From contig OZ361259.1 of NCBI GenBank assembly GCA_977018835.1, positions 310,001-374,000 of the forward strand: a stretch of DNA of 64,000 bases, written 5' to 3'. The DNA is from Minutocellus sp. GHC0000111. Taxonomy: Eukaryota. Below, one piece after another: positions 4,647-64,000 of the stretch (positions within the stretch are counted from its first letter, which is position 1; each line of letters begins with the position of its first letter). The position numbers were made by a program, and so were the translations under genes. The notes beneath the pieces are model-generated. The model did not search any database. It was given only the letters and a program-made list of their open reading frames with translations, and was not told the origin of the DNA.

Positions 4647-5388
4647 ATGATGATCTCACACAAAATCAACTCTCCCCTGGGAAGCAACGACCTTGTCAAG
4701 CTGGTCGACAACGAGCAATGGGAGCTCGCGATCCAGCAGAGCAACAGCAACCGTCATCTAGCCGAGGCTTGGAGTGCACGTCCGGGCTTCTTCGAGGGCA
4801 TCAAAACCAGCGACGTATTGCCCATTCACATTGCCTGCGCGTCGTCCGACCGTGGAGGTCATCGACGCTCTGTACGAGGCCAACAGGATGAGTCTTCGGC
4901 AGAAGGAGTCGGCCTACCGCCGCATCCCCCTGCACATTGCCTGCCGATCCGATGCTTCTCCTGACGTCGTCAAGAGGTTGCTCAAGTACTATCCCGAGGG
5001 TGCTGCAGCCGACGACTCATTGGGCAGATTGCCCATCCATTACCGACTCAGCAACGGAGCCGACGATGAGACTATCGATGCCCTTCTCAAGTCCTGTCCC
5101 GGAAGTGCGCGGGCGTTTGATCGACGGGGATGGCTCCCTTTGCACGTGGCGGCCAGTGTCGGCGCCAGTCCGCACGTCATTCAGAATCTCGTCGAGGCCT
5201 ACCCCGATGACGTCCTCTTGGCCACCAACAAGGGCAGCACTCCCCGCCGATGCCTCAACATGGCACCGCACAGCCCCCACAGGGACGCCAACACCGCCTT
5301 CCTGAAAAAGATGGAGGTGGAAGAGCGATCCAAATTGGGCCGGAAGGCCGCCAAGCCGAACCGTGGTTCTGTTCGCGCCGTTGTGTAG
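4647..5388 (+). pseudogene. Ankyrin-repeat protein with a frameshift at ~4839
   Basis: Repeated LPIHIAC/IPLHIAC/LPLHVAA ankyrin-like motifs are split across two frames; restoring 2 bp in the (CG)n run at 4837-4841 joins ...HIACA to RRPTVEV... Confidence 0.75.
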
Positions 5389-5518
5389 ATTTAAAATGAG
5401 CAAGGCGTAAAGTAAAGTATAGTTTGGTGCGTTGCATGCTATTCCCAATATTTGTTACAGTAATGTGGGATGGCTTCCGCTCTCAATACATTGTGTTGCA
5501 CCCACGGAATGATATGGC

Positions 5519-6391
5519 TCATGGCCCCCCATTATCAGGGCGATACTTGTTCCAATCCACATTGTTGAAATCGAAATCAGTATGCTCAAACCAATTCGGC
5601 ACATCGAACGCAAAGGATATCGGCCCATGCTGCGACACGCACTCTCCCCACGACTTGTCTTGACAATCATCGGCCATGAGCGCGAGGGCCAACCAAACCC
5701 CAAAGAGTTGCAGCAAGAAGGCAATTATGGCCCACTGTATGCCAACGCACCGTGGGAGGCAACAAGGGCACTCCTGATAGCACGCATGCGCATCAGAGCC
5801 AATCACGGTCCTCTTGAGCAAGCCCGAATAGATGTCATATATGCTATACGTTCCGATAAACACCCCGTATAGTAAGATCACATAAGTCAGAATCGGACTA
5901 AAGGCAAACCATTCAATGAAAATGAATGCCAGTGTGACGACAGCATAACCGAGATTCAGATACACCATCGTTCGATTGGGGCTGTAGCACAATGATATCA
6001 ACAGGGCCGCAACGAATGCCGCGGCAGCACCCGTCGCCGTCTTGCGACCACCACTCATCACGATGAACACCATACCCCAGAAGGAGCAACCGATGTAACC
6101 CGCAGGAATGATCAAGATGCGACAACCACCGACGTACTCTGTGACGCCTCCCTCGTTCTCAAAGACACGAATCTTCCTCACATCGCCGCACGTGAGCCAC
6201 GTTGCAAGGGCGTGGCTCAGCTCGTGCAGGAAGGTGGCGATCATTCGCATTGGTTTCATGAGGTCGGACTGCCACGTGAGGAAGCAAAGGACGAGGTAGA
6301 TGGTGAACAGCACGAGAAATGCCGACTGACTGTCATTGCAGCACAAATCGCCACCCTCTCCTCCTCCCTGCCCACCACCATCTTCGGCCAT
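5519..6391 (-). CDS. Peptidase M50B-like intramembrane metalloprotease
   Basis: HELSH (HExxH) in a hydrophobic segment, ENEGGVT, PAGY, SDA motif, multiple TM helices. Confidence 0.85.
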   Translation of the reverse strand: MAEDGGGQGGGEGGDLCCNDSQSAFLVLFTIYLVLCFLTWQSDLMKPMRMIATFLHELSHALATWLTCGDVRKIRVFENEGGVTEYVGGCRILIIPAGYIGCSFWGMVFIVMSGGRKTATGAAAAFVAALLISLCYSPNRTMVYLNLGYAVVTLAFIFIEWFAFSPILTYVILLYGVFIGTYSIYDIYSGLLKRTVIGSDAHACYQECPCCLPRCVGIQWAIIAFLLQLFGVWLALALMADDCQDKSWGECVSQHGPISFAFDVPNWFEHTDFDFNNVDWNKYRPDNGGP

Positions 6392-7278
6392 GCCTACGCC
6401 TGGAGATGGCCTCCGACCTTCTTGGTATTGCTAATGAGAGTGGCGATGGCCTCGGACCTCAGACCTACGATACTCTGACCTTCCTTGAAGAAGCAATATG
6501 CGTGCAGTCAAACACGGCAAAATTGAAATGCTTGTATGACTTTCGTCAATTGCAATTTCAAATTTTATCGAAAGCTAAAGAGTGAGCGAGCTGGCTAATA
6601 TGTGGTGTTCGTCCCGCTAAAATTTTATCTATCATGATGAAAAGTTAGAACCAAATTCTGTTGAATAGGTAGCCTCATTTGCATCAGTAAGAACAAATAT
6701 CAATAACATAAATAAATTCGTGATTGTGAATGTTGTAGGATAAGATTGAGGGGTAGAGGTAAGGGTCGGTCAGCACTTGTAGATCTGTTCGACCGAGGTC
6801 TCGGTCTCTCCAAGCATTGGGATTGTTGGCCGGCACAAAGCCTTCGAAAGTAGCTGCCAGATTAAGTCTGAATGATTGGCTCCTTGTAGTTCTTCTTGGC
6901 ACGGCCACTTCTGTGTCTTCCTCGACCGTTGCTATTACAGGTGCTACTGCAGCATTAGTAAGAGCATTGATCATAGGGGACATGGTAGCGCGCTCGATGC
7001 TCTGATTCGAACGGGGAGACAATTCGTTGACAGCTACTTCAATGTCATCGGCAGTAAACGGCTCTGCAATGACGGTCTCGGTGAGGGAACATTGGGTGTA
7101 TGTTGGGCCATGACGAAAGTTACAGCTGTTGCAAAGGGGAGGTCGACTGAGGGGTGATAGGCACGGCGGGCCAAGGCATTCGATACATCGGCAATTCCCA
7201 CACACTGTAGGACCTCGATTGTTGCTCGGAGTCGATGAACACAAGAATTTCAGAACACCGAAGAGATCAACCGATAAT

Positions 7279-7659
7279 ATGGTAGAAAACGACGATAAGA
7301 AGGAGGAAGATCACAAGTGCAAATGCCCTGTAAATGAATGGGCGCGCCATGCCTTGTATGTTGGCGGAATGGTTGCCCTACACGCTGGCATGGGCGCCTC
7401 GGCGACGGTTGCGAACAAGCACGAGAAATGCCCTGTCTCGGAATGGGGCCGTCACCTCCTCTACGTAGGAGGGGCCGTAGTTCTTGCCGTCAAAGGACAT
7501 GCTTGTTGCAATGCCATTACAAGTGGTGATGCCAAATGCGACGCGGGCGAAATGGATTCTGAGAACAAGTGCCCGGTGAATGAATGGTGGAAGCACGCTG
7601 TGTACATTGGAGTTCTGACTGGAGCCGTCGCTTTGATCAATTCCAGAAAGAGCAAGTAG
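7279..7659 (+). CDS. Small membrane protein with three KCPV(N/S)EW-x2-H-x2-Y-x-G + hydrophobic repeats
   Basis: ATG at 7279; repeats KCPVNEWARHALYVGG, KCPVSEWGRHLLYVGG and KCPVNEWWKHAVYIGV, each followed by a hydrophobic stretch. Confidence 0.75.
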   Translation: MVENDDKKEEDHKCKCPVNEWARHALYVGGMVALHAGMGASATVANKHEKCPVSEWGRHLLYVGGAVVLAVKGHACCNAITSGDAKCDAGEMDSENKCPVNEWWKHAVYIGVLTGAVALINSRKSK

Positions 7660-7887
7660 ATCTACATGTAAGCGAGGCAAGACAGGAAATGATGGAAACA
7701 TTTATTGAAGGCACAATCATCAATGTTACGGACGCGAGGAGGAATTCCAATCTCCATTCACAAACATTTATGAAAGCATTGTGCTATCGGCACAATTATC
7801 AATGTTACGGACGTGGGGAGGAAGTCTAATCTCTATTTGTAATAATAATCAAATCTATTGTAGCTGCGCTGCATACCAGGAATGTAC

Positions 7888-9147
7888 TTAAACTTTTGGC
7901 ATCGATCTCATCATCTGCACTTGCGCCATGACCCCCTTCTGAGCTGCTGTTGACATATGCTGCATTGGCATTATCGGAAAAGGGTGCTCTAGTTCCACGC
8001 CGATCTCATCGATTCCGCACAGTACATATGCGGTGAGCGTACTCGTGAATACTACCGCAACAGGCGACACATTCGAACTAAATCCCAGTAACGCAAAGGG
8101 CAAAACGAGTAGGTACAGGCAGAGCAACCTACTTGTCATCCGGGAAAAGGTCGGGGGTATCGGTGAGCCCAAGATCCGATTGCAGGTACCGACGACAGTC
8201 TCCAAATCATGCAATCGATTTCCCATATGAAGATGCGTCGACATCGGCAGGGGTAAACTCACCTCAGTTCCAGTCTGGGCGAGGTAGATGAGACATCGAA
8301 TGCGACTTAGAATTGCAATGGGTCGTTCCGCATCTTGCTGGAGGAGCCATTCGGCCTCCTCGGGCGGTAGGACAGTGCGAATCACTTCCTCATCGTCTTC
8401 TCCTCGCAGACGGCCTTTGAGACACCACGGAAAAATGGCAAGGTATCGGCACATCAGGAGAGCAAGAGGACCATTGGTGGGTGCGACATACGCGCAAGCC
8501 ATGCCCGCAAGGGCTCTCGTGACGCGTGTCATCATGCCCCAAGCCTTTCGCGTATCCAGGACTCTATCCAAGGCCCGATTTGTCTTCAGTGTTAGCAGGA
8601 GCGCAATGGGCGAAGCAAAGGAGGCCAGCAAGCTCGACTTGAGCGATGCTTTTCGCAGATAATAGGTGATGGCAGGAAACTGTTGAGATACGAAGCACAC
8701 TACGGCCGACCAGATCGATACCAGCATCACAAAGGGCAGAACTGCATGTGCTGTCGTTGACGTATGCCAATTGAAAAAGTGTCGCCCATACCTTCTTAGG
8801 CTCCGCTGGCAGTGCCGTTCCCATTCGACATTCGTCCAAGACCTGGTGTAGCTCGAGTCGCGCGAGATGAGATAACACGGGGTCGTCAAGGTGTTGTTGA
8901 CGTGTGTAAATATCTTGCTGGTGTCATAAAGGAAGGCTTCAATCGCATCTTCATTGTCGAGCCACGAATTGGAAAAGTGAGACTGATCCCCATACCGCCC
9001 TGACGCAGTGAACCCGTGAAGAGGGATGAGTGCTCGGCCACGGGGCTGATATCTGTTTTGGTGAGAATTGTTAGCATCAACCGCAAAATCTGCGGAACTA
9101 ATGGCTGAGACGATGGCCGCCACAACAATACCCCTGGTGGCCACCAT
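7888..9147 (-). CDS. Bestrophin-like (UPF0187/VCCN1-type) anion channel with N-terminal signal peptide
   Basis: LLLTLKTNRALDR, CNRILGSPIPPTFSRMTSRLL and GIDEIGVELEHPF motifs; hydrophobic N-terminus from ATG 9147. Confidence 0.85.
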   Translation of the reverse strand: MVATRGIVVAAIVSAISSADFAVDANNSHQNRYQPRGRALIPLHGFTASGRYGDQSHFSNSWLDNEDAIEAFLYDTSKIFTHVNNTLTTPCYLISRDSSYTRSWTNVEWERHCQRSLRRYGRHFFNWHTSTTAHAVLPFVMLVSIWSAVVCFVSQQFPAITYYLRKASLKSSLLASFASPIALLLTLKTNRALDRVLDTRKAWGMMTRVTRALAGMACAYVAPTNGPLALLMCRYLAIFPWCLKGRLRGEDDEEVIRTVLPPEEAEWLLQQDAERPIAILSRIRCLIYLAQTGTEVSLPLPMSTHLHMGNRLHDLETVVGTCNRILGSPIPPTFSRMTSRLLCLYLLVLPFALLGFSSNVSPVAVVFTSTLTAYVLCGIDEIGVELEHPFPIMPMQHMSTAAQKGVMAQVQMMRSMPKV

Positions 9148-9410
9148 CTTGGTCAAAAAGAGCGAAAAATGAGCGGTGGAGGAGAAAAGGTAAGCACTAT
9201 TTGTGATATGATTAGTGCTTTTGTATTCACAAACGTTTGCTAAGGAGGTGGCACTAATATAGACTAAAACTAGTGACCAGCGATATTGCTTGCTTGATCT
9301 GCAAAATGCATTGAGACTTATGACTGAGCACCTGCTGACTGCTTCATTTCGTTGTTGAAACGGTTCAAAGAGCAATTAGCTACTAGGAAGTAGTATCTCT
9401 CGGGCCAACA

Positions 9411-10111
9411 ATGGCACAACAACCGCGAGAGGATCAAGCCGTGGCGCAATCCTTTGTCGACCTGGTGCAGCGCAAGATCGATCGATGACAAGGTGCTCAA
9501 GGCTCCCAGCGGAGAGGAGGGCAAACGGATGAAGGAGAGCGTCATGTATCCCGGGGCTTATTTGGGGGCAGCGGTGGGGCTGGCTCAGTTCGTCTTCCTG
9601 CGCAAGGCGCCGATTGCCATGATGCGACGGGCTGGTCAAACCAACTTTCAGGAGAGCGCCAAGATGAAGCCGTTTTCATTGCTGTTTGACGCGGTCCTTT
9701 CCACCGCCATGGCAGGGACCGTTTGGATCATGGCAACCGACAAAGACAAGGTGTTTAAAACTGCATCGGAACTTCCATTGGTTGAAGGTAGATCGGACGT
9801 ATCGGATGCACTGTGTGATGACTTCATCGCCCAGTACGAAACCATACGTCCTGAAATTTTGGCAAGATTACAGCGGCGAAAATGGACTGCAGGCAATATC
9901 GGACTTTGTGGCCAATTGCAAGAGACGACAGGCATTCGAACGACGTATTAGGAGAGAGTCTGGCTTGGGCCCAAACGATCCAGTTTCCATCTAAAGAGGA
10001 GGCGTGCCTCGAGATTTCGTGGACGACGACGACACTATTGGAGAAATGGCAGGAATAGACTGGGCAAGCACCGAAGGAGAAAGTGCCTGGTCTGGACAAA
10101 AGCCGAGCTAG
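9411..10111 (+). pseudogene. Disrupted hypothetical membrane protein
   Basis: Single coherent reading (MAQQPREDQ...LPLVEGRSDVSDALC...FWQDY...FVANCKRRQAFE...PVSI*RGGVPRD) broken by an ATCG duplication (9477-9484), a +1 shift near 9856 and an in-frame TAA at 9992-9994. Confidence 0.75.
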
Positions 10112-10270
10112 CTCAGTATCAAAGTTATTGGCCCATGAGGAACTGCAAATCGAAATGGGACAATACATTTATGAATTACACGTGATCTCGCCAATAGCGG
10201 GTATTGATAAAATAGTGTCTAAAGTTAGACATCCAGATCGATTACCTACCAAATGTGCAGAACACCTAAA

Positions 10271-11022
10271 TCATAGCTTCGACGTTAACTGCGGAGCCTG
10301 TGCCCGGCTCTTGCCTTCCACTTTCCTAGACATAATGGCAACCATATCTTTTTCCAACATGGGTGGTTTGTAAAGCCATTGGCCACCATCAACAATCAAG
10401 ACATCGCCGGTTACGAAGCTCCCGCTTCCTTCGCTGGATAAATACACAGCCGACATGCCAATGTCGAATCCCCTTCCCATTCGACCAAGGGGAATACCCT
10501 CGGATACCATTTCATTCATGTCGTCTCCATCGATCCCGGGAGACAGCTTGGTCATACCCGGCGTTCCCTCAATCGGTCCTGGCGCAATGCCGTTGACGCG
10601 AATGCCGTCAGCACCCCACTCGAGAGCGAGGCTTCTAGTAATGGAGTCCACGGCAGCCTTGGCAGCACTTGCATGCACTTGATACCACGTCGCCGGGCAC
10701 TGCAGCGTTGCAGATATATTAATGATAGAGCCATTGCCACTTGCTTTCAAGGCCTCGTATGCCGCATGAGACATATTGTATGTTCCAATGGTGTCGATCT
10801 CCAATACTGTCCTGAACCCCTTTGGTCGGAGGTCAGAAGCATTGGATAGAAAGTTCCCAGCTGCACCATTGATAACAATATCCACCCGACCAAATTTTTC
10901 CAACGCGTACGCAACAACATCCACACAGGCGTCAGGATCTCGGACATCGCAGGTTTTGTACAAACAAGGCCTTCCGGAATCGGCGGTGAGGGCCTCTGAC
11001 GCACGTGAGAGGAAACCCTCTC
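10271..11022 (-). pseudogene. DECR2: Peroxisomal 2,4-dienoyl-CoA reductase (SDR), 5'-truncated
   Basis: NGAAGNF, HASAAKAAVDSITRSLALEWG, VNGIAPGPI and C-terminal SKL (PTS1); the N-terminal TGGGSGIG NADPH-binding motif and ATG are absent and unrelated sequence begins at ~11023. Confidence 0.8.
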
Positions 11023-11397
11023 TCAGACTTTGCACATGGCTATCAAGGCGGTCGCCGACGGCAATGAAACTTGCACAGCAGGTAGACTAGATGATTGCGC
11101 ATTCGTGGGTGCAAGTGCGGTCGAATTTGGTTGCATGTTTGTTGAGGAACGGTTCGTCGAAGATGTGCTTTTTTGGGGCATCTTCGTGCATCTCGTCGAT
11201 CGAGACCGAAAATTCATTACAACCCTAACCCTCACAGTTAAAACACTCGAAAATGCTAGATGCAGTGCATTAAGAGGGCGCTGTCCATAATTTTCCCCGT
11301 TTTTAATCCCCTTTATTCTTATTTCTTATGACGAGCGAAGCATGACAAAAACTCGACCCCACCATGAGAATCGCCGCTCTGCCCCCTCTTCATTACG

Positions 11398-12627
11398 ATG
11401 AAGCGCAGCGCTGATAATAGTGCTGGCCCGGCCCACAACGCAGATACGCGGTTGCGGAAACTCAAGACAGATAACTCCGGTCGCCCGATTTTGCCTGTTG
11501 ACAAGAAGAAAGAGAAGGCGGAGGACAAAGCGAAAGACGCCGTTACCGAGACACTGGAGGGCCTCGCCGTCACGTTGGAGAACGACCCGAACGGACAAGG
11601 ACGAGAATTATGGAACAATCCCGGCGTCGGCCATGCACTTCAACATCTTGTCAAAGCAGTCGAGGCTCGCGCTGATAAGTATCATGTTCGGGATGATATT
11701 GATGTCGCTGCTGAGCGGCCCGGCCTCGTAGTTACCAACCTGTCCGTGGCTGATGTGAAGTTGAGGCTGACGGTCGGCATCGTCGATCAATTGCAAGATC
11801 CCATGTTTGACGCCGGACCTGAATTCTTCCCTATATTTCAACTTCATGGGAAACGGATCGATATTGGATCGGCTCTTGCTGCGCACGGCCGACCTTTCAA
11901 CACCACATCGCTTACTTTGCTTGATGGAAGCGGAAAGCTTATCGTCGCTCGTGTTGCCCTGACAATTACCGAAAAGGCCCGAAGTCTACAACAGGGCCAT
12001 GTGATCAAATTGACAAAGTTCCACCGATGGCATGTGGCTCCATATGATGACATACACTCTACTGCTGGGATTGGACTAGTTGATTTTGATATTGTTGGAA
12101 TGGGCCAACTTCTGCAGGTAGATGGTGGGCCATCAGCAGCGATCAGATCGGACACGGATGCTCTTGTTGCGGCCGTTTGTGAGGAAGCCGACGATGATCC
12201 GACGGCAGCGCCGGAGGCAGACACATTCGGTAATTGGGACGAGACCAGAGAGAGGCCGCCAATACCCCCTGCTTGCTGCACTGCCGCCAACCGAAGCTGC
12301 TCAATGTACGGCACACTCTTCTTTCAGAAATGCGTCTGCGAAGAAATGCTGGTGCCGACGGAGGAGGACCTGGAGGATATCGCTGACAAATACTACGCAA
12401 CCACCATGCCAGTCGAAGCCATGGCAAATAATTTGAAGAGGAACATGCTGTATTGGTACTATGCAACTGAGGTGTATCATGTGAGAGGTTGGCTTGATCG
12501 GAAGCCCTTGCCAACCTGTCTAGTCTTTTGCATCAGGTTCATTTATCCAAATGATAAAGGTGAACGATATGTTGGATTCATCCCTGGTCATCAAGATGAA
12601 GAGGAAGAAGAAGAGGAAAATGCATAA
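11398..12627 (+). CDS. Transposon accessory protein: RPA70N-like OB fold plus C-terminal KolX/P2X7-C-terminal-like Cys-rich domain
   Basis: Intact 409-aa ORF inside the TIRs; LTVGIV...PIFQL...LTLLDG...LQQGHVIKLTKF...LVDFDIVG resembles the RPA1 N-terminal OB fold; CC-x6-C...CVC...KRNMLY...RKPLPTCLVFCIRFIYP resembles the P2X7 tail/KolX signature. Confidence 0.7.
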   Translation: MKRSADNSAGPAHNADTRLRKLKTDNSGRPILPVDKKKEKAEDKAKDAVTETLEGLAVTLENDPNGQGRELWNNPGVGHALQHLVKAVEARADKYHVRDDIDVAAERPGLVVTNLSVADVKLRLTVGIVDQLQDPMFDAGPEFFPIFQLHGKRIDIGSALAAHGRPFNTTSLTLLDGSGKLIVARVALTITEKARSLQQGHVIKLTKFHRWHVAPYDDIHSTAGIGLVDFDIVGMGQLLQVDGGPSAAIRSDTDALVAAVCEEADDDPTAAPEADTFGNWDETRERPPIPPACCTAANRSCSMYGTLFFQKCVCEEMLVPTEEDLEDIADKYYATTMPVEAMANNLKRNMLYWYYATEVYHVRGWLDRKPLPTCLVFCIRFIYPNDKGERYVGFIPGHQDEEEEEEENA

Positions 12628-12731
12628 TCATTACCTCAACACATGTAGATAACAAGAATGTGCGTAGCACGTGAGTAACAGCACACAATAAATCCATTTT
12701 TATTTACAGTGATAAAATATTTTACACGTGT

Positions 12732-15046
12732 TTACAAGCTGCCATTTTCTCTCAGTATCGCCGGCATCCAAGAGCTAACATCATTTGCCGATACACCGAA
12801 GTTTGTCTTAGCTTTCTTATTATTTCTTGCAGATTTCTTGTTGCTGCCTGGGCTTCTGCGCTTCTTTCCGGCGTAAACGACAACGTCGTCAGCATCGTCG
12901 CATTGACATTCAGCCCGAGTGTGGCCAAGCTGCTTGCATTTCTGACACTGCTGGTCAATCTTCTTCTTGCGGCCAGGCTTTGCTGGTTTCGCCTTACCAG
13001 CAGCTAGGGCCCTGTTCTTCTTGTACACATAGTCCTTGTCGTCTTTCTCGCTTCTGTTTCGCAAGGCTGCTCGAAGGCGCTTGCTGTCGCTCTTGCTCTT
13101 TTTGTACTCATCGGTGCGCTTACGCGCAAGGTCGCCCTCGAGCTTCCGGTCAATTGCATCGAATCCATCTTTTCGGGTAGGAGAATCCCTCGATCCCAAC
13201 TTTCCAAGAACTCGCTCATTGAATTCCGTACCCAGTGACTTGTGGCCAGCGGCTCTACTTGTTGCATTTGGGTAGGCGTCTGAAGCAGTCAAATTCGGCC
13301 TTTTCCCCATCGTGAACTTCGTCACCATCCCGTTGAGCTGTTCGACGCCGGTGGTAGATTCCTTCTTGCAGTTGGAGTCGGCAGTATTCTTGTTGATTCT
13401 CTTGGTTATTTCAAGCGTCATCTTGCGAATCGTGTCGTCACTAATCTCCAATATGTCGCCATCGAATTGATTCCCCGAGCTCCATTCCTCATCGAGCTTG
13501 CCATCACTCCAATCAGGATGAGCAATGCTGAGGTGAATCCAATCACACGTGTTGGTGGTGCAAAAAGTGTGAATGCCACATTGGTGACGAACGACGGACT
13601 GGAGTTCTTTCTGAAGGAGGGCCAGATGACTTTGTTTTTCCTCCTCGGACACAGCACCATCGGGCTGATCGAGAACGCTGTGCTTGTACCGATCAGTAAT
13701 CTTCGAAATGTCCTGTTTCATCCGATTGATGCGTGGTCGGGGGATGGCATTAAAATTTTCAACTCCCAACATTCTCGGCCAGATGCTCCTCTGCCACACC
13801 GGGGGAGTAGGAAGAGTTGCGATAGCAGAAGCCATCATGGTCGTACAGGGCCAGTGTCTCATCCTTGCTCATGTTTTTGAGCTCAACTCGGCGTTATTGG
13901 ATTGCCGGCTTCCCGCCTCTCCCTCAATCTTGCATTGCAGGCTCTCACGCAACAGTGGCAGCTTGCCTGAGAGATTCCCTTGTCAACAACAAGGCCAGTT
14001 TCCTTGTCTACGGCAAATACCGCTGCAGCAGAGCCAGTGTAGCAATGGCCGTAGTCGCGTTTGAGGGCGCTGCCGTCTTGGGCCACCGTAACCACCGCCG
14101 CCGTGTGCATCTCGCCGCCTTGTTCAAACTCAACAGTCTTGCTGCTAGCGGCATGTGCTTTTGCCCTATTCTCGTCAATGATTTCATCAGCTGCTTCAAT
14201 AGCCGCTGCTCTGCATTTCTTTTCCACCTGTCGGGCATTCTTTTCGGTCGGATGGACGATGTCGGCCTTCGTGCAGAAATTCATGAAGCGACTTGCGCAC
14301 ATGGCCTCATCTTCCGCTGCCTCCATCAGCTCCAAGTTCATTCCAGCCTGACTTCTAGAATGCTTTCTGCCGGGGCACACAACTTCTGACCTCTGGCCGA
14401 TCCCAGTGCAAAAAGAAAAAGGTTGGTTGCATCTATCGCATCGCCATTCAAATGTAACGCCGAATCCACGCCGAACTGGCTCGGCCGAGAGATGCAGATT
14501 GCCGCACGATCGGTGGAGATTCTGTGCGAAATCACACAGCTGCTTCATCTCAACCACAATTCTTTTGCCGTTGAGCTGCACGCCGGTGATGTTGGGACGA
14601 TCGGTAGCGTTGGCGGTGGGAGTAGATGACCGACCGCCCGAAGAATTCTTGTCGGAACAATGTTTCAGTGTCGCGTTGAGATGGGGCCCATGCTTTTCAT
14701 CGTCCTGGAAGTAATTTTCAGGTGTGGTCGGCAGTGATCGCTTGCCATTGCGTTGAGAGCGTGGGCTGGCGTTATCGGCTATTCTGGAGAAGCGGTAGAA
14801 GGGCTTTGCAACGTCAAGGCCTGACATTTTCTCTGGACGTCGTCGTTGGATGTTGACCTCGTGTCGTGTTGGGACGTGTTGAAGAGATGATCGAACAAGA
14901 GAGATCTCTAAGCTCGGCGATGCGCCACCGCGCATCAAGATACGGTCAAGCTCATCAATAGTGTAGTAAGTACATCTGACGTCGTCTGGGAATGAGAGCA
15001 AGAGTGAGAGGATTGCCTCCTTGGCGTTAGCACGTGATGTTTCCAT
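12732..15046 (-). pseudogene. Kolobok/Mutator-like DDE transposase, frameshifted and internally deleted
   Basis: CG...RGFGVTFEWRCDRC; VTVAQDGSALKR (first Asp); DKETGLVVD...CHCC; short third-frame piece HDGFCYRNSSYSPGVAEEH (~13887-13762); HQCGIHTFC; TTGVEQLNG (catalytic Glu); C-terminal CxxCxxxGHxxxxC knuckle; no second-Asp (DGD-like)/CxxH segment found. Confidence 0.8.
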
Positions 15047-15518
15047 GGTTGTTTTTTTGTTTTGTGTCGGTTCTGGCGCAAGATGCGCTTTTTGATGAGA
15101 ACCTTACAAAAAGAACCCCAAATGAGGGAGACGTGCAAAAATACCCCAAACAAATATCCCCTTACCTCCCAACAGCAAAACTTCAAGATGTCTTCCCACC
15201 AGCACCACCAATGCTGGTTATGCGTCGGCCGAGACTAATTTCGGTTGATCCGACGATGATGTGTACGTCGACCATTATTATGTTTCTGAGGGAGAGTTGA
15301 TTCATCGAAGTTCCTCTGAACCAAGTGTTCCTGGAGGGATTTCCGACTTAATGCTGAAAGGAACGTCGATGACTCTTCGCCACTGTGGAGAGCGGCGGCC
15401 TTCGATGAGGAGCCCATCCTCACGTTGGAGTGCTAACTTTGGCCATGGTGCGAAGAAAAAACAGCACAAAACACGCATTTTGGGGGCTTCCTAAAAGTTA
15501 TGGACAGCGCCCTCTTAA

Positions 15519-16742
15519 AACATAAGTTAGCAACTGGAGGAAGGTTGTGTTCTATCTGTTCCTGACCGTTTTGCACCGCACTGAAGTGAGATAGCAAGGT
15601 CGGCATGAGCATCTCAACCTTAATGCCTCTAAGCATGTACTTGTTCATTCGGCTTACGGATCTCTGTATCAGAACGAACATGAATTTGTGCCTAATGAGT
15701 TGAGATGCTTTCAGTGAGATCCAGGATTTACAAGTAAGTTCCAGAGATGAACCAATTTTGCTGTTGTCCGTTCCAAAATGAAATCCTTGGTTCAACAAGT
15801 ATTGAAGAAACTTGATTGGTTCTCCATTAGAACAAAACCTTTTCTCCAGATGAAGCAAACGGTGACAGGTGGACAGAGCGTTGAAATCACCCTAAAAAAA
15901 TTGGCTCAGTTCCCCACACAGTGACGTGTAATTCTTGTGCTTGGAACATGTTGGTCTCCTGATCTTTTGAATGAATTCCTAGCATCAGGTATTTCAAACT
16001 TTAACCCATCACAAGATGCCATGCAAATGCTAAGATCAAACTGCTCGATGAGAAAAGACGGTGATGAGTCACTCTCGGCCACGACCAGATCAGCAATGTT
16101 GCGTTCTTCTTGTCCGAGAACAAATCTGGGACGGGATCTATTTCAGGCATGGACTTTTCATCGGCGGGTCCATCACACATCAAAACATAGTTTAGGCGAC
16201 TTCCTGGTGAAGCTGAAATGTCGACATTTTCACCAAGATGTCGAATGGTGGCTCTTTCTGCACGAACCACCTTTCTCCATCGTTGTTTGACAGATGTGTC
16301 CCCCCCATTGCTAAGAGACACCGAGGCACACGGGTTCCCTGTGTTGCGAGGAAACTCTGCTATGTCCTTCTTCTACTTGCTCCATGCCATTCGATAATCG
16401 GAGAAAATCTTGGAGGTTTTCATCACCATAATATCTATCTTTTATCCGAGAGAGAGAACAAGATCTGGTCCGTTTGCATCACAGAGCCATCCTCGAACAA
16501 AAGGTGCTGAAGACTTTGAAGAGAACATGTCTACATCAGTTTGTTCTCCAAACGTCCTCCCGAGAATCGCCTGAACGACTATGGACCCTGACAGCTTCAC
16601 TGACCCTCTCATTACTTTTGACGACATGTCTTCAAATGACTTGACAGTGAAACCAGAGCGATTCTTTTTCAATGCGTAGTCAGTCAAGGGGGAAGAACGC
16701 AAACTAGAGCGCAGCAAAAACTTGGCAATTGACAACTTAACC
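15519..16742 (-). pseudogene. Decayed Pol-beta-superfamily nucleotidyltransferase-like ORF (its 3' end continues at 11269-11023, beyond the Kolobok)
   Basis: Fragments in several frames: LSGSIVVQAILG...TDVDMF (GS...DxD), IADLVV...FDLSICMASCDG, RMNKYMLRGI; removing 11274-15518 fuses ...VANLCF-NALHLAF... in frame. Confidence 0.55.
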
Positions 16743-43170: not shown

Positions 43171-43259
43171 ATTCATATATAGGAATCAGGCTTTTGCTTT
43201 CTTTGCTCATTGAAGTTCACAATATAAGCTTATCATTATCATATACTGTAGAAGAAACC

Positions 43260-49138: not shown

Positions 49139-49346
49139 TCTAATGAGTGATTAGATAATTGTACAATAGAAGCAAGACTAACACACAAGTGTAGGTTCTA
49201 TCTAACACCATATGCCTCATTGCCGATTTATCTGTGCCACCACCGCTGATGCCAGTGATGATGTACGGCGCTCTCGGTGATAGATGAATTCGGATATTTG
49301 ACTGCCAATTGTCCACTTCCACGTGCCATGCAATACTGCTTCCCCT

Positions 49347-50925: not shown

Positions 50926-52681
50926 TTAGTAACCCTCTTCTTTTTCCTTTTGTTTCACTTTCGCGTATCCCGAGTCACTCTTATCTTCCCGCACATGTGC
51001 CTTTCCAGACCTTGAATCCACAACGCATGCCATGATTAGCCAAAAACAGCAGCATAGAGCCCAGAACAAGGCTGAGAGGGCAAAAATATTGTAGGCCAGG
51101 GCGTGGGCCTTCTCGGGAGATGCTGCACCCTTTTCTGCTGTTTCATCAATCATCCCACTCGTCAGATATCCCACCAATGGCGCACCGAGTACTGAAGCAG
51201 ATATCTATGTTGAAAATGAAGGGTAAATCAGTGCCGGCACGGTACATGTATTGTTAGGGTTAGAAAGAAAAACAAATCAAAGGTATTGCATGTAAATGTG
51301 CATGTGCCCTGCATTGTCATTCAACTGACTCTGAGAACAAGGCAGCATGTATGTGACCAAACTCACCATCTCTAGGAGCAACCAGAGCGAGACAATCTGA
51401 GCCCTCTCCGATGGATTCCGAGCCATCTCGGCTGTCATCGGGCGGAGAACTCCCGCACGAGGCCATCCGGCGATGACAAAAAAGACATTTACCCAAAAGA
51501 ATATGCTCTTGTAGGTGGTGGAAAATAGAAACATACCGTAGGCAGTAGTTCCCAATGCTTTACTGGTGAGCGCGACATATATCCGACCTCGGGGCAGATG
51601 AGCAAACCTATCACCGCTTATTCCCTTGGAAAACTGGATGGACACGATTTGCTCTCTCGATAGGCCGCGCCACTCATAAAGCAGTAATAGGAAGCTCATC
51701 ATATCCCAGGGAATGCCGCCAAATATACCTTGACCTACCAGACAGAGGAATGCAGGTATTCGGGTAATTCGTCGGACAATTTGTCCCAGCGTCATCTTCT
51801 TCTTATCGTCGCCCCCAGTGCTCTTGCTATCCGCCTTTCCAACACCAGTATGGCCTGTCACGACCAACATGCGCGGAGTCAATATTGCCGCAAATAGAGA
51901 TAGTAGACCGATCGCAAGATATGGCATCTGCCAATTCGAGAACCAAATTATTGATGCAGCGGCAAAAGTACCAGCGAGCTTCTCGGCTAGTCCCATTACT
52001 GTGGATATGTGTGCGTTCAGAGGGACGAGAGGAAACAGAGCATGAGAGACCAATAACAAGAGCATTAACCTACACGAACCCACACGATGGTATCACAGAC
52101 CTTCCCTTTAAATATACTGCGCATGACTCACATCCAAAGGCTCTACCGAGCATATTGCTCGGTACGAACTCAACCAGCAGTGTCTGACTCAAAGGCATTA
52201 TGCTCGCTACAGCACCACCATTGATGCTTCGGAACAAAGCCTGTGCCATCACACTGGACCCAGCCACGGCAAGTCCCAATGTTGATATGCCCCACAAAGC
52301 ACAGGCCCACGCGAGAATTATTGGTGCTTGCTTGATGCTGTATCTGCGGACGCACCAGCTCCATAGCGGTAGAGAAAGAGCGTATGAAAGGTTGGAAAAC
52401 ATGGAGAAGTAGCCGAGGGTTTCCACCGACATACCAAGCTGCTTCTCGAGCATAGGGAAGGAGGAGGCCAGCAGGCCCTTATCAGCAGAATCAAGGGCAG
52501 CAATCATTATGACAATGAATGTAGGAAGGCTGAGGATGGATCGAATGGCATTGAAGCTCTTGAAGGGTAAAATGGACAGTGCCGATGACCGTGGGGCGTT
52601 CTTGCCAACGGTCGAGCCAAAATCAGCGCCGCCATCCTCCTCGTCGTAATCACTTCCGCCCTGATGCCGGCGCTGCTGCAT
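50926..52681 (-). CDS. MFS transporter (spinster-like), paralog 1, with a 30-bp in-frame deletion at ~51612
   Basis: AALDSADKGLL, GIFGGIPWDMM; ISG-DRFAH here versus ISGTIGTPLGGFLGDRFAH in paralog 2; two introns. Confidence 0.82.
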
Positions 52682-53648
52682 GGCAGAGGCACCTTCGAAG
52701 AACAACTCAGGGCGGCGGCTGATCGCGAATTTCCATCATCTGCTGGTGCCGCAGAACTTCGGCGTGCCAAAAAGATTCTTCTACACCTGCTGACAATCTA
52801 AAGATACGCAACAACCACCGTCACGAGATGTTGCATCAACTAAAGTGGCTTGAACCATGCTCAAAGATGAGGGTCGGGGTGCGTGGGAGGGCGCCTCCAT
52901 CGTTGACTTCATCAGTCACTTGGGTTTTGTTACCTTGCCTTCTGTGATTGGTCCAGGTAGCCGAAGAGAGAAGGCTCCGGGTGCCTTGTTCGGAGCTCAA
53001 AGATGAGGCTTGCTGAGCAACGAGATTTGAGCTAGATGCATCAATGACGCAAGTTGATAGACAAGGCACGATCAAGATCAAGAGGAAAGAGAGAGCAGAA
53101 CGACAGGACGAACGAACTCACTCTTCTTGGTAAAGCAGGAGCTGCATCGACTGAGAAGAGGATATCGAGTATCGCTCGATTCTTTTTTTTTCCGCCAAAT
53201 TGTTGTTTTACTTGCAATTACAACACAATTTACTAGATCTACGAGGGTGGATGCCTGGGAGGGTCCATGCGATACGAGATAGATGAGGCGACTGGACTTG
53301 GTTCGAAGGTACTTCGCGCGGTTTGCGCCGCCGCCGCCGCCGCAAACGCCCGCGCCATCAGACGAGAGGTGGCGGGGCGGGGCATGCAAGAGTCGAAGAG
53401 AAAGCCGGCACATCGCAACGATTCCTCTCTTTGATCCAAGCCCGACTACACATGTACTAAGTTGAGGTGCTAACAACTACTTCTAGATAGCCAGGCTCCT
53501 GTAAACTTTTGTAGTTCAATAGATCCAGTAGATTGCATATACTACCGGTAATTTGTTCAAAGTTGCCCGTGCCGTGTGTGAAAAATTCTACGGTACAATA
53601 CATGTGTAGATCTAGACTCTACATATGTACATGGTCGAACAAAAACCC

Positions 53649-55692
53649 TCATGCAACCTGAAGAAGCTCGATGCCCCTGCCCATTGTTTTACTGCTGGCG
53701 ATTGCCTCTGGCTTACCCACCGCGTCTTCGCGTTGACTAAGCTCGGCATATTCTACACCTCCCTTGCCACTTCGCACACCACTGGTAGTATTTGAATCCA
53801 CAAAGTATGCCATGAGGCACCAGAAGCAGCAGCATAGAATCCAGAACAAGGTCGAGAGAACGAAAATATTGTAGGCCAGTGCATTAGCCTTTTCGGGTGA
53901 TGCCATGCCCTTTTCTGTGGTTTCGTCGATCATCCCACTCGTCAGGTACCCCACCAATGGTGCACCGAAGATCGCTGCTGCGGTCTTTGGCGTTAATTGA
54001 AGAAAAGAAAGGTCCAAAACGAAATTGTTAGTGAAACAACGACACATAACTATATCGACGCCCGATCTGAATTGATGAATAAATTATTGCTCCATAACCT
54101 CCCAGAATGCATGCGCATGAGGAAGCGCAGCGCTCTCCCTTTAGAGAAGGAGCCATCCGGAGTCACGGCGGGGCGCATTGTCTGCGCTCCACCATGTGTG
54201 ACGGTCCGTTGGTTTGCTTTCGCACACTATAGGAAAACTTTCTGCCCACTGGAAAAAGGACGAAGGCCTAGTAACGGTGCTTTGCTCTGCTCTTCTGACT
54301 GACGGATACATACAAATGAATGCGTTCGGCAGCACACTCACCTTTTCCAACAGCAACCAGAGGGAAACAATTTGGGCTCTCTCTGACGGGTTTTGTGCCA
54401 TCTCGGCACATATGGGTCGATTTGCTGCGGCAGTTGTCCACCCCGCAACTAGATGGAATAGGTTGAACCAAAAGAATATGCTCTTGTAGGTAGTTGAGAA
54501 CAAGAATATACCAAACGATATCGTTCCAAGTACAACGCTGGTGAGCGCGACATATATTCGACCTCGGGGCAAATGAGCGAATCGATCCCCGAGGAAACCG
54601 CCCAGGGGCGTCCCAATGGTACCGCTGATGCCCTGGGTGAATTGAATGGACACAATTTGCTCTCTCGATAGGCCGCGCCATTCAAACAAAAGTAGCAGGA
54701 AGCTCATCATGTCCCAGGGAATCCCACCGAATATGCCTTAACCTACAAGGCAGAGGAATGCTGGTATTCGGGTAATTCGACGGACAATTTGTCCCAGCGT
54801 CATTTTCTTCTTGTTGCCATCCTCGTCGCGTTTCTCCTTGTCATCACCGTGACCAGATACGGCCAGAAACCGCTGAGCAAATGATGCGGCGACGAGCGAC
54901 AGCACACCGACAGCAAAGTAGGGCATCTGCCAGTTCGAGAACCAAATTATTGAAGCCGAAGCGATGGTGCCGGCAAGCTTCTCGGCAAGGCCCATCACTG
55001 TTAATGAGAGAAAATGTTGCGCAGTTGGTTCATATTGTGAGAAACAATACAATGCATGGCACATTATATTGTAGGGATCCCTAGTTTGCAAGTATAGTAC
55101 AAGTATAATACACGTCGATCATATCAAACTCACGTCCAAAGGCTCTACCGAGCATGTTGCCCGGGACAAACTCCACGAGCAGCATCTGGCTCAGGGGTAG
55201 GATGCTGGCCACGGCACCACCATTGATACTCCGAAAGAGCGCCTGAGCACCGACACTGGAACCCGCCACGGCAATTCCCAACGTCGATGCCCCCCAAAGG
55301 GCACAAGAACCGGCCAGTATCGACGGCGATCGTTGGATGCTGTATCTGTGGACGCACCATCCCCATAACGGTAGGGCGAACGAGTACGACAGGTTGGTAA
55401 AGAGGGAGAAGTAGCCGAGGGTTTCCACCGACATACCCAGCTGCTTCTCGAGCATGGGGAAGGAGGAGGCCAGCAGGCCCTTGTCGGCGGAGTCCAGGGC
55501 GGCGATGACGATGATGATGAAGGTGGGAAGGTTGAGGACGGACCGGACGGCGGCCAGGGTTGCTCTCAGTGATTGGAGGGTGTTGGTCCAAAAGGAGAGG
55601 GGAGCTGGGGCGCCGGCTGCCGATGAGCCGAAATCATCGCCGTCATCCTTCCACATGTCGTTGCTGCCGCCCGGTCTTCGACGTTGTTGCAT
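53649..55692 (-). pseudogene. MFS transporter (spinster-like), paralog 2, with a nonsense codon
   Basis: Colinear with paralog 1; CLVG-TAA-GIFGG at 54738-54740 where paralog 1 has CAA (Gln). Confidence 0.85.
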
Positions 55693-56214
55693 CGTTTGGC
55701 CTCTAACTGACAACTAATGTGCTGGTACTACGTAGTAGGTTGTTTGTGTCAACGAATTTGCGGCCAACGAAATTGACGCACGTCACGCTTTCTCTCTTTC
55801 TCTCTTTCAGGCGAAGATAATAAAGCTGCGATTCGTCTCGGAGGACGCTACCTCTTATGCGCCAAGTAGCTCGGCCGAAGAAGCGAAGGGGGTTTATGCC
55901 CTCTCGCTCGGCGCCATTCTTTTTGTAGGACTATGCAAGCCGTCGCGTCATGGTTTCAGCCATTGGTTGCTCATGATATGTTTTGAGCATGCAGGTGCAT
56001 GGCGAGCCATGATGAGCCATCATAGCCGGTTGATGGACGGACTTGCGCGCTCTGCACTGCAGTCTGCATGCAGCAGCTATGTAGCTCAGCAGCTCTCGAT
56101 TTTGCCGATGCCAAGCAGCATTTCACAACTCAACTCAACTCAACTCGTGACGCGTACTCTGGCTAGTATCGGCCGTCACGTGTCGCCCATTTCATCCAGT
56201 AATTTACCATCATC

Positions 56215-57564
56215 ATGTCCAGCAGCAGTAGTACTCTCATGCCAACTGACAAGCCGACGCCAGCGGCGGCAATCGGCAACCTTCCGATCCCACCCATATC
56301 ATCGCTACCACCGGAGATGCAATACAAAACCTCGGACGATGCCCATGGCAACAAGACGGTCATCCTGGGCATCGAGGGATCGGCCAACAAGATTGGCGTC
56401 GGCGTCCTCCAATACGATCCCAATACAGACACGTACGAAACGCTGTCCAACCCCCGCAAGACGTACATCAGTCCGGCCGGGATGGGTTTTCTCCCCCGAG
56501 AGACGGCGTGGCATCATCAGCATCACGTCGTGGCGCTGGTACGGGCGGCTCTGACGGAGGCCTATCCGGACGAGTCACAACCGCAGCGACATTTGAGCGG
56601 CATTGCCTTCACCAAGGGACCTGGGATGGGCGGTCCCCTCCGCTCTTGTGCCGTTGCCGCTCGTACTCTATCGTTGATGTGGGACGTGCCATTGATCGGT
56701 GTCAACCACTGCGTCGGTCATATCGAGATGGGACGGGTCGCCTGCCACAGTCCCAATCCAGTTGTTTTGTGCGTCAGTGGAGGAAACACCCAGGGTACGT
56801 GCGTCGTGCGCTGGTCTGCAACGATATCTATCGCTTAGGTATTTTCTTGACAAAACTTCCGTTTTTTTATGTTCAAATACATGATTTGCTCACTCAAATC
56901 TCTTTACTCTCTATGCTTCATGCAAATATTTCATTTCAGTCATCGCTTACTCGGATCAACGATATCGCATATTCGGAGAAACCATTGATATTGCCATTGG
57001 AAATTGTTTGGATCGGTTTGCACGGGTGATTGGACTGAGCAACGACCCTTCGCCGGGATACAATATCGAACAGTTGGCCAAGGAATGCAGACGAGATACC
57101 TTGGTGGACATGCCTTATGTTGTCAAGGGAATGGACGTGTCCTTCTCTGGAATTCTAACGTACGTGGAAACCGAAGCCAAGAAGCTTTTGGCGCCAGATT
57201 CCAACATTACCAAGGCCGATCTGTGCTATTCTCTGCAGGAGACCCTGTTTGCCATGCTCGTCGAGATTACCGAGCGAGCAATGGCTCACACGGGGCAGAA
57301 TCAAGTGCTGATTGTGGGTGGGTGGGATGCAACAAGCGTCTCCAAGAAATGATGGCCGACATGGTGCGAGAACGAGGTGGCACACTCTGTGCCATGGATG
57401 CCCGCTACTGCATCGATAACGGTGCCATGATTGCACAGGCGGGCATCTTTGCGCTGCAGTTCGGCCAACAGACCAAGCTGGAGGACAGCTGGTGCACCCA
57501 AAGATATGGGACGGATGCTGTGAAGACAACGTGGCGAGAAGGCGTTCAATGGCATCATACATAA
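56215..57564 (+). pseudogene. OSGEP: Kae1/OSGEP tRNA t6A threonylcarbamoyltransferase; intron 56795-56939; frameshift at ~57322
   Basis: GIEGSANKIGVG, VNHCVGHIEMG, SGGNTQ-VIAY and IDNGAMIA motifs; IVGG|VGCN is split between frames. Confidence 0.9.
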
Positions 57565-57631
57565 GTACCTAGGTAAGTCTAAAGAGTGATTTCACGAGAG
57601 AGCAGACACCCCCTCCGCGATGTTTCGTAAA

Positions 57632-57718
57632 CATTGTACCAACTTCCTTTTATTGATGATCCTTACTCAGAAGGGTATTGTAGACCATAATCAACAATAA
57701 AAGGAAGTTGGTACAATG
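57632..57718. repeat. Inverted repeat / hairpin with 29-bp arms (1 mismatch) and a 29-nt loop
   Basis: CATTGTACCAACTTCCTTTTATTGATGAT (57632-57660) versus ATCAACAATAAAAGGAAGTTGGTACAATG (57690-57718). Confidence 0.92.
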
Positions 57719-60694: not shown

Positions 60695-60698
60695 CTAG

Positions 60699-62372: not shown

Positions 62373-62691
62373 CAACGGAGATCGACCGAGAATGTGCCAG
62401 GTGCTCACCAGCACATCTCGTGGGAGGTTTATTGAAATACAAAAATACTTTTGGTTTTTCAGAAAATGAGGTCTCAAGCATGCTAAAAAGCAGTACATAA
62501 AATTTGAACAGACCTAAACTCCCATCACAGAGCTGACGATGCCCAGCCGCCGCTTCAGGTTGGCGCTCCCTCCACTTATTTGATTCGATTCGATTCATTC
62601 GTTCAAGTCCCATAGCTACAACATCACGTCAACTCACCAGACCAGCTGCTCTCTCGAAATCGCTCTGACAAACAAAGCAAAAATAAATAAG

Positions 62692-63257
62692 ATGAGCAAT
62701 CGCAATGCCGACGTGGAGGCGGCCAGCCTCCTGAACAACCGGCGGCAGGGGCAGGGGAACGCAGCAGCCGCAGATGGCAATGGTGGCCCACCAGTCCAGG
62801 CCGTTGGGACTCTCCCCCCAACCACCCGTACCACAAAATGAAGCGCACGGCGATAATGGGTGCCGCCATCTGGGGCCTGCACGAGTTTGGCGTCTATCAT
62901 GCCGTCCTGCGCAGTCCGGACGTGTCGCACGAGTGGTTCAAGGTCGGGCTGGGAGCATCGATTGCCATGCTCATTATCAAATCGTACGTCGAGCTATACG
63001 AAGGAAAGACGAGGAAACGACGGGTCAACTACGAGAACTACCGGCAGGTCACGCACGCGGTCATCCTTCTCATCCTCCTGGCGTCGGTGTCGTTCCATGC
63101 GGCTCTCTGGCCTCATTATGGTGGATTCAAAACCATTCTCATCATGATTATGTTTGGCTATGGGGTGTTGCTGCAGGCGGCATTGCTGGTACCGACCTGG
63201 GTGCAAAATTTGGTCGGAGCGGCCTTGATGACCTTCTTCATTCAGCAATATGCATAA
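62692..63257 (+). pseudogene. TMEM128-like 4-TM protein with a probable frameshift near 62830
   Basis: MSNRNADVEAASLL... N-terminus ends at TGA out of frame with the TM body (VNYENY, ALWPHYG); an internal ATG at 62838 could still give a shorter product. Confidence 0.55.
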
Positions 63258-63432
63258 GCAAGTGGATGGATAGATGGATGGATGGGCGACAGGTTACTTT
63301 TGATCGCTGGCCGTTACAACCTATATCATTATTCTAAAGGTTGGAGTTGTATCGTCTACTGAGCGCGGGCTTTTTAAGTGCACTGTGGCGCATTATTGAT
63401 AATATCAGTACTATCTAGCTACGTAGTGGTTG

Positions 63433-64000
63433 CTATTGCTCCCCGTTGCCTTCATGTACCAACACCGCCGGCATGTGACATCCATCATCCGGTCGATAAA
63501 TTGGTCGGGCAGTTCTCAGTGCTCCCGTCACGCCATAGCTCCACGCCTTGTGAATCACAACGGCATCGCTCTCCCCTATCAAATGTCAGTCCAGAAATCC
63601 TTCTGCCAAGTCTTCCACTGACGGATTCGCTTGCGTCTTGGTATGAGCCCCGCGAGAGGTCGTTGTTATCACTCGTCTAGCGTAGGTCTGACCTTTGCTT
63701 GATGTCAATTTCTCCCCACCAAATTTCGACTCGATGTCCCTTCGAACATATGGTGAATCACTAATCACATTCCAAACAATGCCAGTAAAACTACGATCCA
63801 ATGCAAAGGTGCCGTCGATGTAGTTTTTCTCAACTGTCTTGGCGCACTGGATGGACTTCTCCAAGTCAACTTCCATGCCTGCAATGTCTTTCGCCGACGA
63901 TTCCTCACCTGGCTTGGCATCGGCGCGACCAGTACGGTAATATACTGTGACTACCAGGTTGTTAGTATCCTGGAGTGCTGGGAAGATGTCGGATTGGAGT
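63433..64000 (-). pseudogene. 3' part of a fucosyltransferase-like gene with a nonsense codon at 63586-63588
   Basis: VTVYYRTG, WNVISDS and FLD*HLIGESD...SYGVTGALR; the TGA sits where Trp (TGG) is expected and the frame continues to TAG at 63433-63435. Confidence 0.65.

Follow-up and report, generated by a model that had tools for sequence, protein, structure and literature searches.

Gene-breaking lesions on both haplotypes of a 64-kb stretch of Minutocellus DNA: a probable case of complementary decay in a clonal diatom

We analyzed a stretch of 64,000 nucleotides from Minutocellus sp. GHC0000111 (contig OZ361259.1, positions 310,001 to 374,000; hereafter the window), in which a first-pass annotation made from the sequence had listed lesions in 13 ordinary genes. 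We denote the haplotype in the window as H1 and its partner as H2. The decay is two-sided: H2 carries breaks of its own, and DECR2, the gene for peroxisomal 2,4-dienoyl-CoA reductase, is broken on both haplotypes by different lesions. We favor, at a probability of roughly 0.6, Meselson-type complementary decay, in which both haplotypes of a clonal diploid carry gene-breaking mutations, mostly in different genes. This is the best fit among the three options first offered, which were a fractionating allopolyploid or duplicated subgenome, Meselson-type decay in an asexual lineage, and a non-recombining sex or mating-type region.

The window is gene-dense eukaryotic DNA (GC about 0.48-0.61, GT-AG introns) whose proteins are listed on an 819,234-bp ENA contig. 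We built 33 gene models and took Pfam matches from 52 open reading frames. Named matches to DECR2 are diatoms (Eucampia, 67%; Cyclotella, 64%; Thalassiosira, 63%). The nearest named sequence is that of Arcocellulus cornucervis (Cymatosiraceae), which shares 90% clusters with two window genes, at amino-acid identities of 89% for a TMEM128-like product (P0176) and 88-94% for the product of the gene at 35152-37837 (P0275). Judged by these affinities, the organism is a Cymatosiraceae-like diatom. A protein scan of JGI metagenome contigs returned two loci, one of them a syntenic relative (L001) at about 81% DNA identity; an exact 22-base pattern had no matches in the same contigs. Exact protein look-up gave no match for 9 of 20 window or cluster proteins (the ankyrin, cis-prenyltransferase, LURP, DECR2 internal start, 17204, 19193, phosphatase, 31232 and lectin genes).

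Twenty-four sequencing runs were listed, of which 20, from nine studies, contain part of 1500-11400. Five were compared in detail over window positions 3000-22999 and 39100-57600: X1 and X3 (organism coded A, study P1, 2024), X5 (labelled sponge metagenome, study P2, 2024), X6 (Illumina RNA, labelled sponge metagenome, study P3, 2015) and X8 (Illumina RNA, labelled marine metagenome, study P4, 2018); X2, X4, X7 and X9-X24 were unused. X1 or X3 may be the source reads of the assembly.

Lesions in the window haplotype

Fourteen of the 33 gene models on H1 are broken by a frame break, stop, start loss or deletion. Thirteen are those listed previously, and all 13 sites were located in the sequence; the fourteenth is an O-fucosyltransferase (O-FucT) gene whose in-frame stop lies outside the coordinates of the first-pass annotation.

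1907-4231, minus strand: O-FucT gene, two exons (PF10250); in-frame TAG at 3179-3181 where relatives have Gln, from the window sequence compared with relatives
4647-5388, plus strand: ankyrin-repeat gene; 2-bp deletion at about 4839, heterozygous
9411-10111, plus strand: 231-aa gene without family label (the 9411 gene); 4-bp duplication at about 9478, extra A (+1) at about 9855, TAA at 9992-9994
10271-11023, minus strand: DECR2; codons 1-50 missing on H1, 2-bp insertion (+2) at 11004 on H2
29058-31232, minus strand: two-exon gene without family label (the 31232 gene); frame probably shifted within an A run close to 31090
34050-34790, minus strand: LURP-one-like gene (PF04525, E 4.5e-05, just under the cut-off); no ATG at the expected start
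39330-39773, plus strand: MAPEG-type gene (family label of the first-pass annotation); 4-bp deletion at 39454 and 20-bp deletion at 39499, with a stop between them
41798-43170, plus strand: cis-prenyltransferase (PF01255); 1-bp deletion at about 42465
46014-49138, plus strand: RMR-like RING gene; frame break at a G9 run, about 46660-46668, seen through homologs P0254, P0249, P0250 and P0253
50921-52681, minus strand: MFS-1; in-frame loss of 33 bp from H1 near 51615
53649-55692, minus strand: MFS-2; TAA at 54738-54740
56215-57564, plus strand: OSGEP/Kae1 (PF00814); 1-bp deletion (G) at 57319
62692-63257, plus strand: TMEM128-like gene (PF20479); 1-bp deletion in a C run near 62818, frame break seen against homologs
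63440-64000, minus strand: 3' end of a FucT-like gene (label likewise from the first-pass annotation); TGA at 63586-63588

The lesions are largely real DNA, as site-spanning run contigs carry the window allele for 7 of the 13 listed genes (ankyrin, 9411, MAPEG, the 1-bp deletion of cis-prenyltransferase, MFS-1, MFS-2 and OSGEP). The DECR2 insertion is backed indirectly, RMR and TMEM128 by homologs, and the 31232, LURP and FucT-like genes by the sequence only. Homopolymer error, already doubted when the lesions were first described, is insufficient as an explanation, since run contigs carry the window alleles of these seven genes, and two also turn up in Illumina RNA from further studies (the 9411 +1 in X6, the MFS-2 stop in X8). 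Lesion alleles of H2 likewise recur in separate studies (the DECR2 +2 in X5, a 1-bp MFS-1 shift in X8). Because 19 of the 33 models show no visible frame break and most listed cluster relatives are full length (10 of the other 14 members listed for the O-FucT cluster, and 8 of 15 listed for the 9411 cluster, are free of the breaks), the lesions are neither chance nor general assembly noise.

For the ankyrin gene, an X1 contig over 4678-6497 is identical to the window (0 differences); the other allele appears as an X6 RNA piece two letters longer and in X3 with five gap letters (gap places unlisted). The net length of these pieces points to an intact gene on H2, and the gene is intact in L001. 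The X1 contig over 9251-11024 has no substitutions and a single gap elsewhere, and so contains the duplication, the +1 and the TAA of the 9411 gene. This +1 is transcribed (X6 Illumina RNA, 9604-10140, 0 gaps), and the H2 copy is intact (P0020, on a contig of 3,030,164 bp). The MAPEG deletions are matched by X3 (39162-41348, 0 gaps), while X1, X5 and X8 restore the 4 and 20 letters; on H2 the gene is intact and transcribed. X3 over 41655-44408 has its sole gap at 41706, so the window allele is present at the site of the cis-prenyltransferase deletion; an X1 piece holds one extra letter (place unlisted), and the gene is likely intact on H2. The MFS-2 stop is transcribed and spliced (X8, 54342-54997, 0 differences). 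OSGEP/Kae1 is essential in other eukaryotes; its 1-bp deletion is matched by X1 (55408-57585, 0 gaps), X3, X5 and X8 carry the extra G, and the H2 copy is intact and transcribed. The H2 product of RMR (P0254) reads through at the G run, and an intact TMEM128 allele (P0185) lies on a 1,879,304-bp contig. At window 46954-46975 the H2 product of RMR has about 27 extra acidic residues, which H1 has lost in frame or H2 has gained.

The earlier list stands for its sites and most of its breaks; three of its details are corrected or in doubt. The MFS-1 deletion, given as 30 bp, is 33 bp, or 11 codons relative to the MFS-2 paralog. The expected LURP ATG is indeed missing, and the sequence makes ATG>ATA at about 34788-34790 more likely than the GTG first read there. 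The proposed Arg>Gln change (RTSGE>QTSGE) in cis-prenyltransferase is unconfirmed, as base 43010 reads G in all three covering runs (X1, X3 and X5) and the A of the window was seen in none.

Two further candidates were rejected: a frameshift suspected in the isovaleryl-CoA dehydrogenase gene, where splicing gives one open frame, and a joint at 46296-49484 (side 25), which is a GCC-repeat artefact. In frame-intact genes we observed some unusual residues. Exon 2 of alpha-tubulin encodes Cys at 22838-22840 in place of the Phe present in the two best solved alpha-tubulins (DDSC versus DDSF), and an X3 contig agrees with the window; this may possibly be a damaging missense change. The 35152-37837 gene has His, Cys and Pro where Arcocellulus P0275 has Tyr, Tyr and Thr.

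Breaks on the partner haplotype

Depth in X1 and X3 is about 150-180 at shared places and 75-100 at allele-specific places; because the latter is about half the former, we infer a diploid with two allelic haplotypes. Cluster look-ups placed alleles of ten window genes (O-FucT, M50B, bestrophin, 9411, DECR2, ribokinase, 31458, Fer2, RING and RMR) on the 3,030,164-bp contig, and 12 window genes have an allele on this contig or in the runs. The contig represents the run allele, H2, because its RING product (P0235) differs from the window at six residues, all six equal to X1 contig substitutions, and because its DECR2 product (P0167) has precisely the out-of-frame N-terminus to be expected from the +2 at 11004. 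Gene order is common to H1 and H2 over at least 47 kb, and to the window and L001 for three genes. H1 and H2 are mutual nearest sequences in 4 of 6 protein groups (M50B, RING, DECR2, ribokinase); for O-FucT and TMEM128 a third sequence is nearer to one haplotype. Alleles of both haplotypes recur in runs of the four studies P1-P4, spanning 2015-2024.

Four of the 16 genes with information are broken on H2: DECR2 and MFS-1 from the reads, ribokinase and O-FucT with likelihood. In the other allele of DECR2, 11024 is joined to 16969 with 170 letters between them (3 of 4 runs), in place of the 5,944-bp block found only on H1. The unique part of that insert has about half depth (90 versus about 150 in X1), and the window's own junction is absent among the rows listed. 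The +2 of H2 occurs in X1, X3 and X5, and relatives read through in the frame of the window. X6 RNA spans 11004 without the +2, so an intact-frame transcript exists there, from the rearranged H1 copy or a third allele. The product listed from the 819,234-bp contig (P0165) differs from window 10274-11035 by one residue (Asn for Asp), where an X1 contig agrees with the window. For MFS-1, the 33-bp deletion is matched by X3 (50596-52432, 0 gaps), and the other allele restores only 32 of the 33 bases, a frameshift carried in the same letters by X1, X5 and X8; the insertion is laid out as 29 letters plus 3 overlapping, in a record 1869 long versus 1837 of the window.

Two further genes bear on H2, one of which appears damaged there:

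24531-25712, minus strand: ribokinase-like PfkB gene, 393 aa and intact on H1
39973-40929, minus strand: RING-H2 gene, intact on both haplotypes

The H2 ribokinase product (P0217, P0229) has 189 aa, the shortest of 15 members, and the gene is likely broken on that side. The H2 O-FucT product begins past the stop site, as on H1, and 10 of 14 other listed members begin before it, which suggests that O-FucT is likely broken on both haplotypes.

An intact syntenic copy, which the first-pass annotation had suggested looking for, is thus supplied by H2 for most of the lesions: among 10 genes with H1 breaks, 7 have an H2 allele that is intact or probably so. The rates of breakage do not differ between H2 (4/16, Wilson interval 10-49%) and H1 (14/33, 27-59%; Fisher P 0.35), and both sides have private amino-acid changes (3 and 2 in O-FucT, 3 and 2 in RING).

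Selection, divergence and mobile DNA

To compare coding changes between the haplotypes we used the only fully listed contig, X1 over 39100-44408, with all 28 of its substitutions (one synonymous call, at 39487, was read by hand). Eighteen codons are changed, 14 nonsynonymously and 4 synonymously, for a ratio of nonsynonymous to synonymous polymorphism (pN/pS) of 1.1-1.4, in agreement with the proposal that selection has been relaxed. The 14:4 count fits no selection (P 0.36-0.56) and is unlikely under a nonsynonymous to synonymous rate ratio (omega) of 0.3 (P 0.002-0.012). RING and phosphatase, both frame-intact, contribute 9 nonsynonymous and 2 synonymous changes. Comparison of the window with L001 gives omega values of 0.087 for ankyrin and 0.054 for M50B; synonymous divergence (dS) is saturated there, at 1.1 and 2.3. 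Without selection, 3.9-4.6 stop gains are expected on one haplotype (0.28% per haplotype, 40,949 coding bases); four were seen, one of them read from the window sequence only.

Divergence between H1 and H2 is 0.56% (28 in 5,003 bp) outside short dense tracts rich in synonymous changes, one of which lies in the phosphatase gene:

44409-45389, no strand: dense synonymous-rich H1/H2 tract; 12 of 12 listed codon changes synonymous

These 12 changes fall within 115 bp (44409-44523). Together with a second tract (18007-18073), the dense tracts hold 1 nonsynonymous and 18 synonymous changes, versus 21 and 7 among isolated changes (Fisher P 2.7e-6). On the simplest reading, the tracts are old polymorphism filtered by selection, and the changes elsewhere are young, unfiltered mutation.

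At the Phaeodactylum mutation rate of 4.77e-10 per site and generation (available text of PMC6604790), 0.56% corresponds to about 5.9 million divisions; this figure, based on a single 5-kb stretch and the rate of another species, is an upper bound. The X1 contig over 39100-44408 has 7 indel events per 28 substitutions between H1 and H2; the same source gives 0.033 indels per substitution for Phaeodactylum. Many of the lesions are slips in short repeats; weakened mismatch repair would be a guess.

The first-pass annotation also noted accumulating mobile elements, and high-copy insertions are indeed found on H1 and not on the other allele:

6586-7236, no strand: 651-bp high-copy element, missing from the other allele (joint 6585-7237 in X1, X3 and X5)
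11025-16968, no strand: 5,944-bp block found only on H1, replacing 170 bp in DECR2, from the joint and depths
11270-15518, no strand: Mutator-like element within that block, with 25-bp terminal inverted repeats (I8) and PF20700
41349-41654, no strand: high-copy insert missing from the other allele, from run contigs

The depth of the Mutator-like element in X1 is 11,000-23,500 versus about 150, roughly 70-150 times single copy, as a rough guide to copies. Its frame is split at window 13885, where other copies in all four runs are one base shorter, and the copy in the window is likely dead. Over its first 245 bp (11025-11269) the insert resembles the 5' part of a different gene, and in X1 and X3 the sequence carries on otherwise from 11256 (loose ends). 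The DECR2 insert is a composite and not a plain transposon insertion. Telomere-type CCCTAA runs occur at 31239-31262, just upstream of the 31232 gene, and at 11221-11232, where the foreign piece attached to DECR2 begins; they may be promoter boxes or repair scars. Elsewhere, a 752-bp element whose inverted ends measure 91 bp sits in the intron of the 35152-37837 gene (35797-36548), two more small elements, likewise with inverted ends, lie at 38815-39053 and 57632-57718, and exact tandem duplications span 98 bp in 830-1025 and 27 bp in 41437-41490.

Explanations and comparison with known systems

Complementary decay would proceed as follows. The lineage would have long been clonal, with neither meiosis nor outcrossing to expose lesions, and new recessive mutations, sheltered by the partner copy, would go unpurged. 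Selection would keep just one working copy, leaving needed genes such as OSGEP intact on one side and allowing dispensable ones (DECR2, MFS-1, probably O-FucT) to be lost on both. With lethal alleles that complement each other, losing heterozygosity would carry a cost, and the haplotypes would thereby be locked together. On this view, the polymorphism of the dense synonymous tracts would go back to a sexual ancestor. The decay probably extends across the genome, and a small population in a sponge host may speed it.

Several points weigh against this explanation. The evidence base is 64 kb of one contig, the samples are small (18 codons), and the dense tracts were chosen by eye from 40 of 282 and 40 of 157 listed rows. 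The pN/pS of polymorphism is normally above that of divergence, and dS between the species is saturated. Each run contig is a mosaic that keeps a single allele per site, from which phase and clonality are inferred; the H2 damage in ribokinase and O-FucT rests on the start choices of gene callers, and the sponge association is a label on two of the five compared runs (X5 and X6). Mitotic recombination, reported in diatoms in more than 4 of 100 divisions (10.1101/2020.11.08.373134, available part), should erase heterozygosity over roughly 6 million divisions unless this is selected against. Retained heterozygosity would be compatible with so high a rate if complementary lethals made its loss costly.

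We regard as unlikely a local region of an otherwise sexual diatom that stays heterozygous permanently and does not recombine (a mating-type region, an inversion or a balanced-lethal supergene), with both arrangements decaying. For the 64-kb window it would explain the two-sided decay, the insertions and the recurring haplotype pair equally well. TMEM128, moreover, has its allele on a different contig from the remaining H2 genes, which may reflect a rearrangement. Against such a region, no mating or sex gene was found among the 33 models (Pfam matches from the 52 reading frames; the window is 64 kb of an 819-kb contig), gene order is shared with H2 and L001 over the spans given above, and the many copies of the Mutator-like element are a feature of the genome as a whole. 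Centric diatoms are mostly reported as monoecious, which we count against a local mating-type region.

We consider quite improbable an allodiploid or hybrid with fixed heterozygosity, its subgenomes being fractionated. Patches of strong divergence, namely the 115-bp tract at 44409-44523, the N-terminal part of RMR and 16 differences in the 31458 product, speak for it, but the even, deep divergence of homeologs is not found: divergence outside the short tracts is just 0.56%, H1 and H2 are mutual nearest in M50B, RING, DECR2 and ribokinase, and depth fits two copies, not four. A hybrid origin within the species would merge with clonal decay.

That H1 alone decays, as a Y-like or silenced copy beside a healthy H2, is very doubtful. 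H1 has the higher count of broken genes (14/33 against 4/16), only two of the H2 cases are shown by reads, and most H1-broken genes have a working or likely working H2 copy. H2 is nevertheless itself frameshifted in DECR2 (three runs and P0167) and MFS-1 (three runs), private amino-acid changes occur on both haplotypes, H1 alleles are transcribed (X6, X8), and the copies are allele-like in most genes, so the idea of one degenerating haplotype or homeolog beside a healthy one is not supported. Consensus errors of an unpolished assembly, suggested by the homopolymer setting of several lesions (G9, C6, A5), the unseen A at 43010 and the one-residue mismatch of P0165, may singly account for RMR, TMEM128, the 31232 gene or 43010 and are all but ruled out as a general explanation, given the window alleles of seven genes in run contigs.

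Beyond complementary decay as such, we tentatively entertain a bolder reading, which we think possible at somewhat less than even odds. The organism would be a clonal diatom associated with sponges, and reciprocal gene loss would be making its entire diploid nuclear genome haploid in function, with about a third of genes dead per haplotype, heterozygosity locked by complementary lethals and transposons expanding. It would then be a eukaryotic algal symbiont at the first stage of genome reduction.

In theory, clonal diploids shelter recessive damage until the copies complement each other, and clear cases of mass breakage are rare. Were the decay described here to extend across the genome, it would rank as an unusually strong example of genes decaying without sex. 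For this organism a phased assembly is available, as are deep runs from several years, so the prediction is directly testable: which genes can go on both copies, whether selection acts against heterozygosity loss, and how the nucleus of a eukaryotic symbiont would start to shrink. Gene content would be badly misjudged from an assembly of just one haplotype of this diatom.

Trypanosoma brucei gambiense group 1, a clonal diploid protist, shows the Meselson effect (PMC4739771, available text). As here, its homologous chromosomes gather mutations independently, there after entry into a new niche. It differs in that, according to the same text, loss of heterozygosity acts as compensation and the lineage is less than 10,000 years old, whereas here heterozygosity is kept and some 25-40% of genes are broken per haplotype; moreover, the Meselson label, which is defined by a phylogenetic test, is provisional here, as the run contigs are unphased mosaics that show the sharing of single alleles across four studies. 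The asexual L-clade of Thalassiosira pseudonana is likewise a diatom clone from sexual ancestors with a patchwork of low and high SNP (single-nucleotide polymorphism) density, but loss of heterozygosity is reported for it and reciprocal gene decay is not described in the accessible portion of PMC6043606, which has no matches for 'Meselson', 'pseudogene' or 'loss of function'. The mating-type chromosomes of anther-smut fungi and other supergenes resemble the window in their sheltered load and in the build-up of mobile elements without recombination (PMC5962589 and 10.1101/2022.08.03.502670, both as far as available). They are local regions of sexual species and are tied to mating-type genes, none of which is among the window genes. 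PMC11410982, whose available part has no word on gene decay, refers to a sponge-symbiotic diatom with a near-complete genome. We found no report of such decay in Cymatosiraceae, in sponge diatoms or in diatoms generally, though subscription journals and supplements may hold one. Arcocellulus cornucervis differs as another species in which both matched proteins are intact.

Recently host-restricted bacterial symbionts (e.g. Sodalis-like) carry many fresh pseudogenes with 1-3 hits and show mobile-element expansion; they are haploid and lose only dispensable genes. The window shares with them the fresh pseudogenes of 1-3 hits each and the expansion of mobile elements. Unlike them, this diploid eukaryote breaks a needed gene, OSGEP, on one copy.

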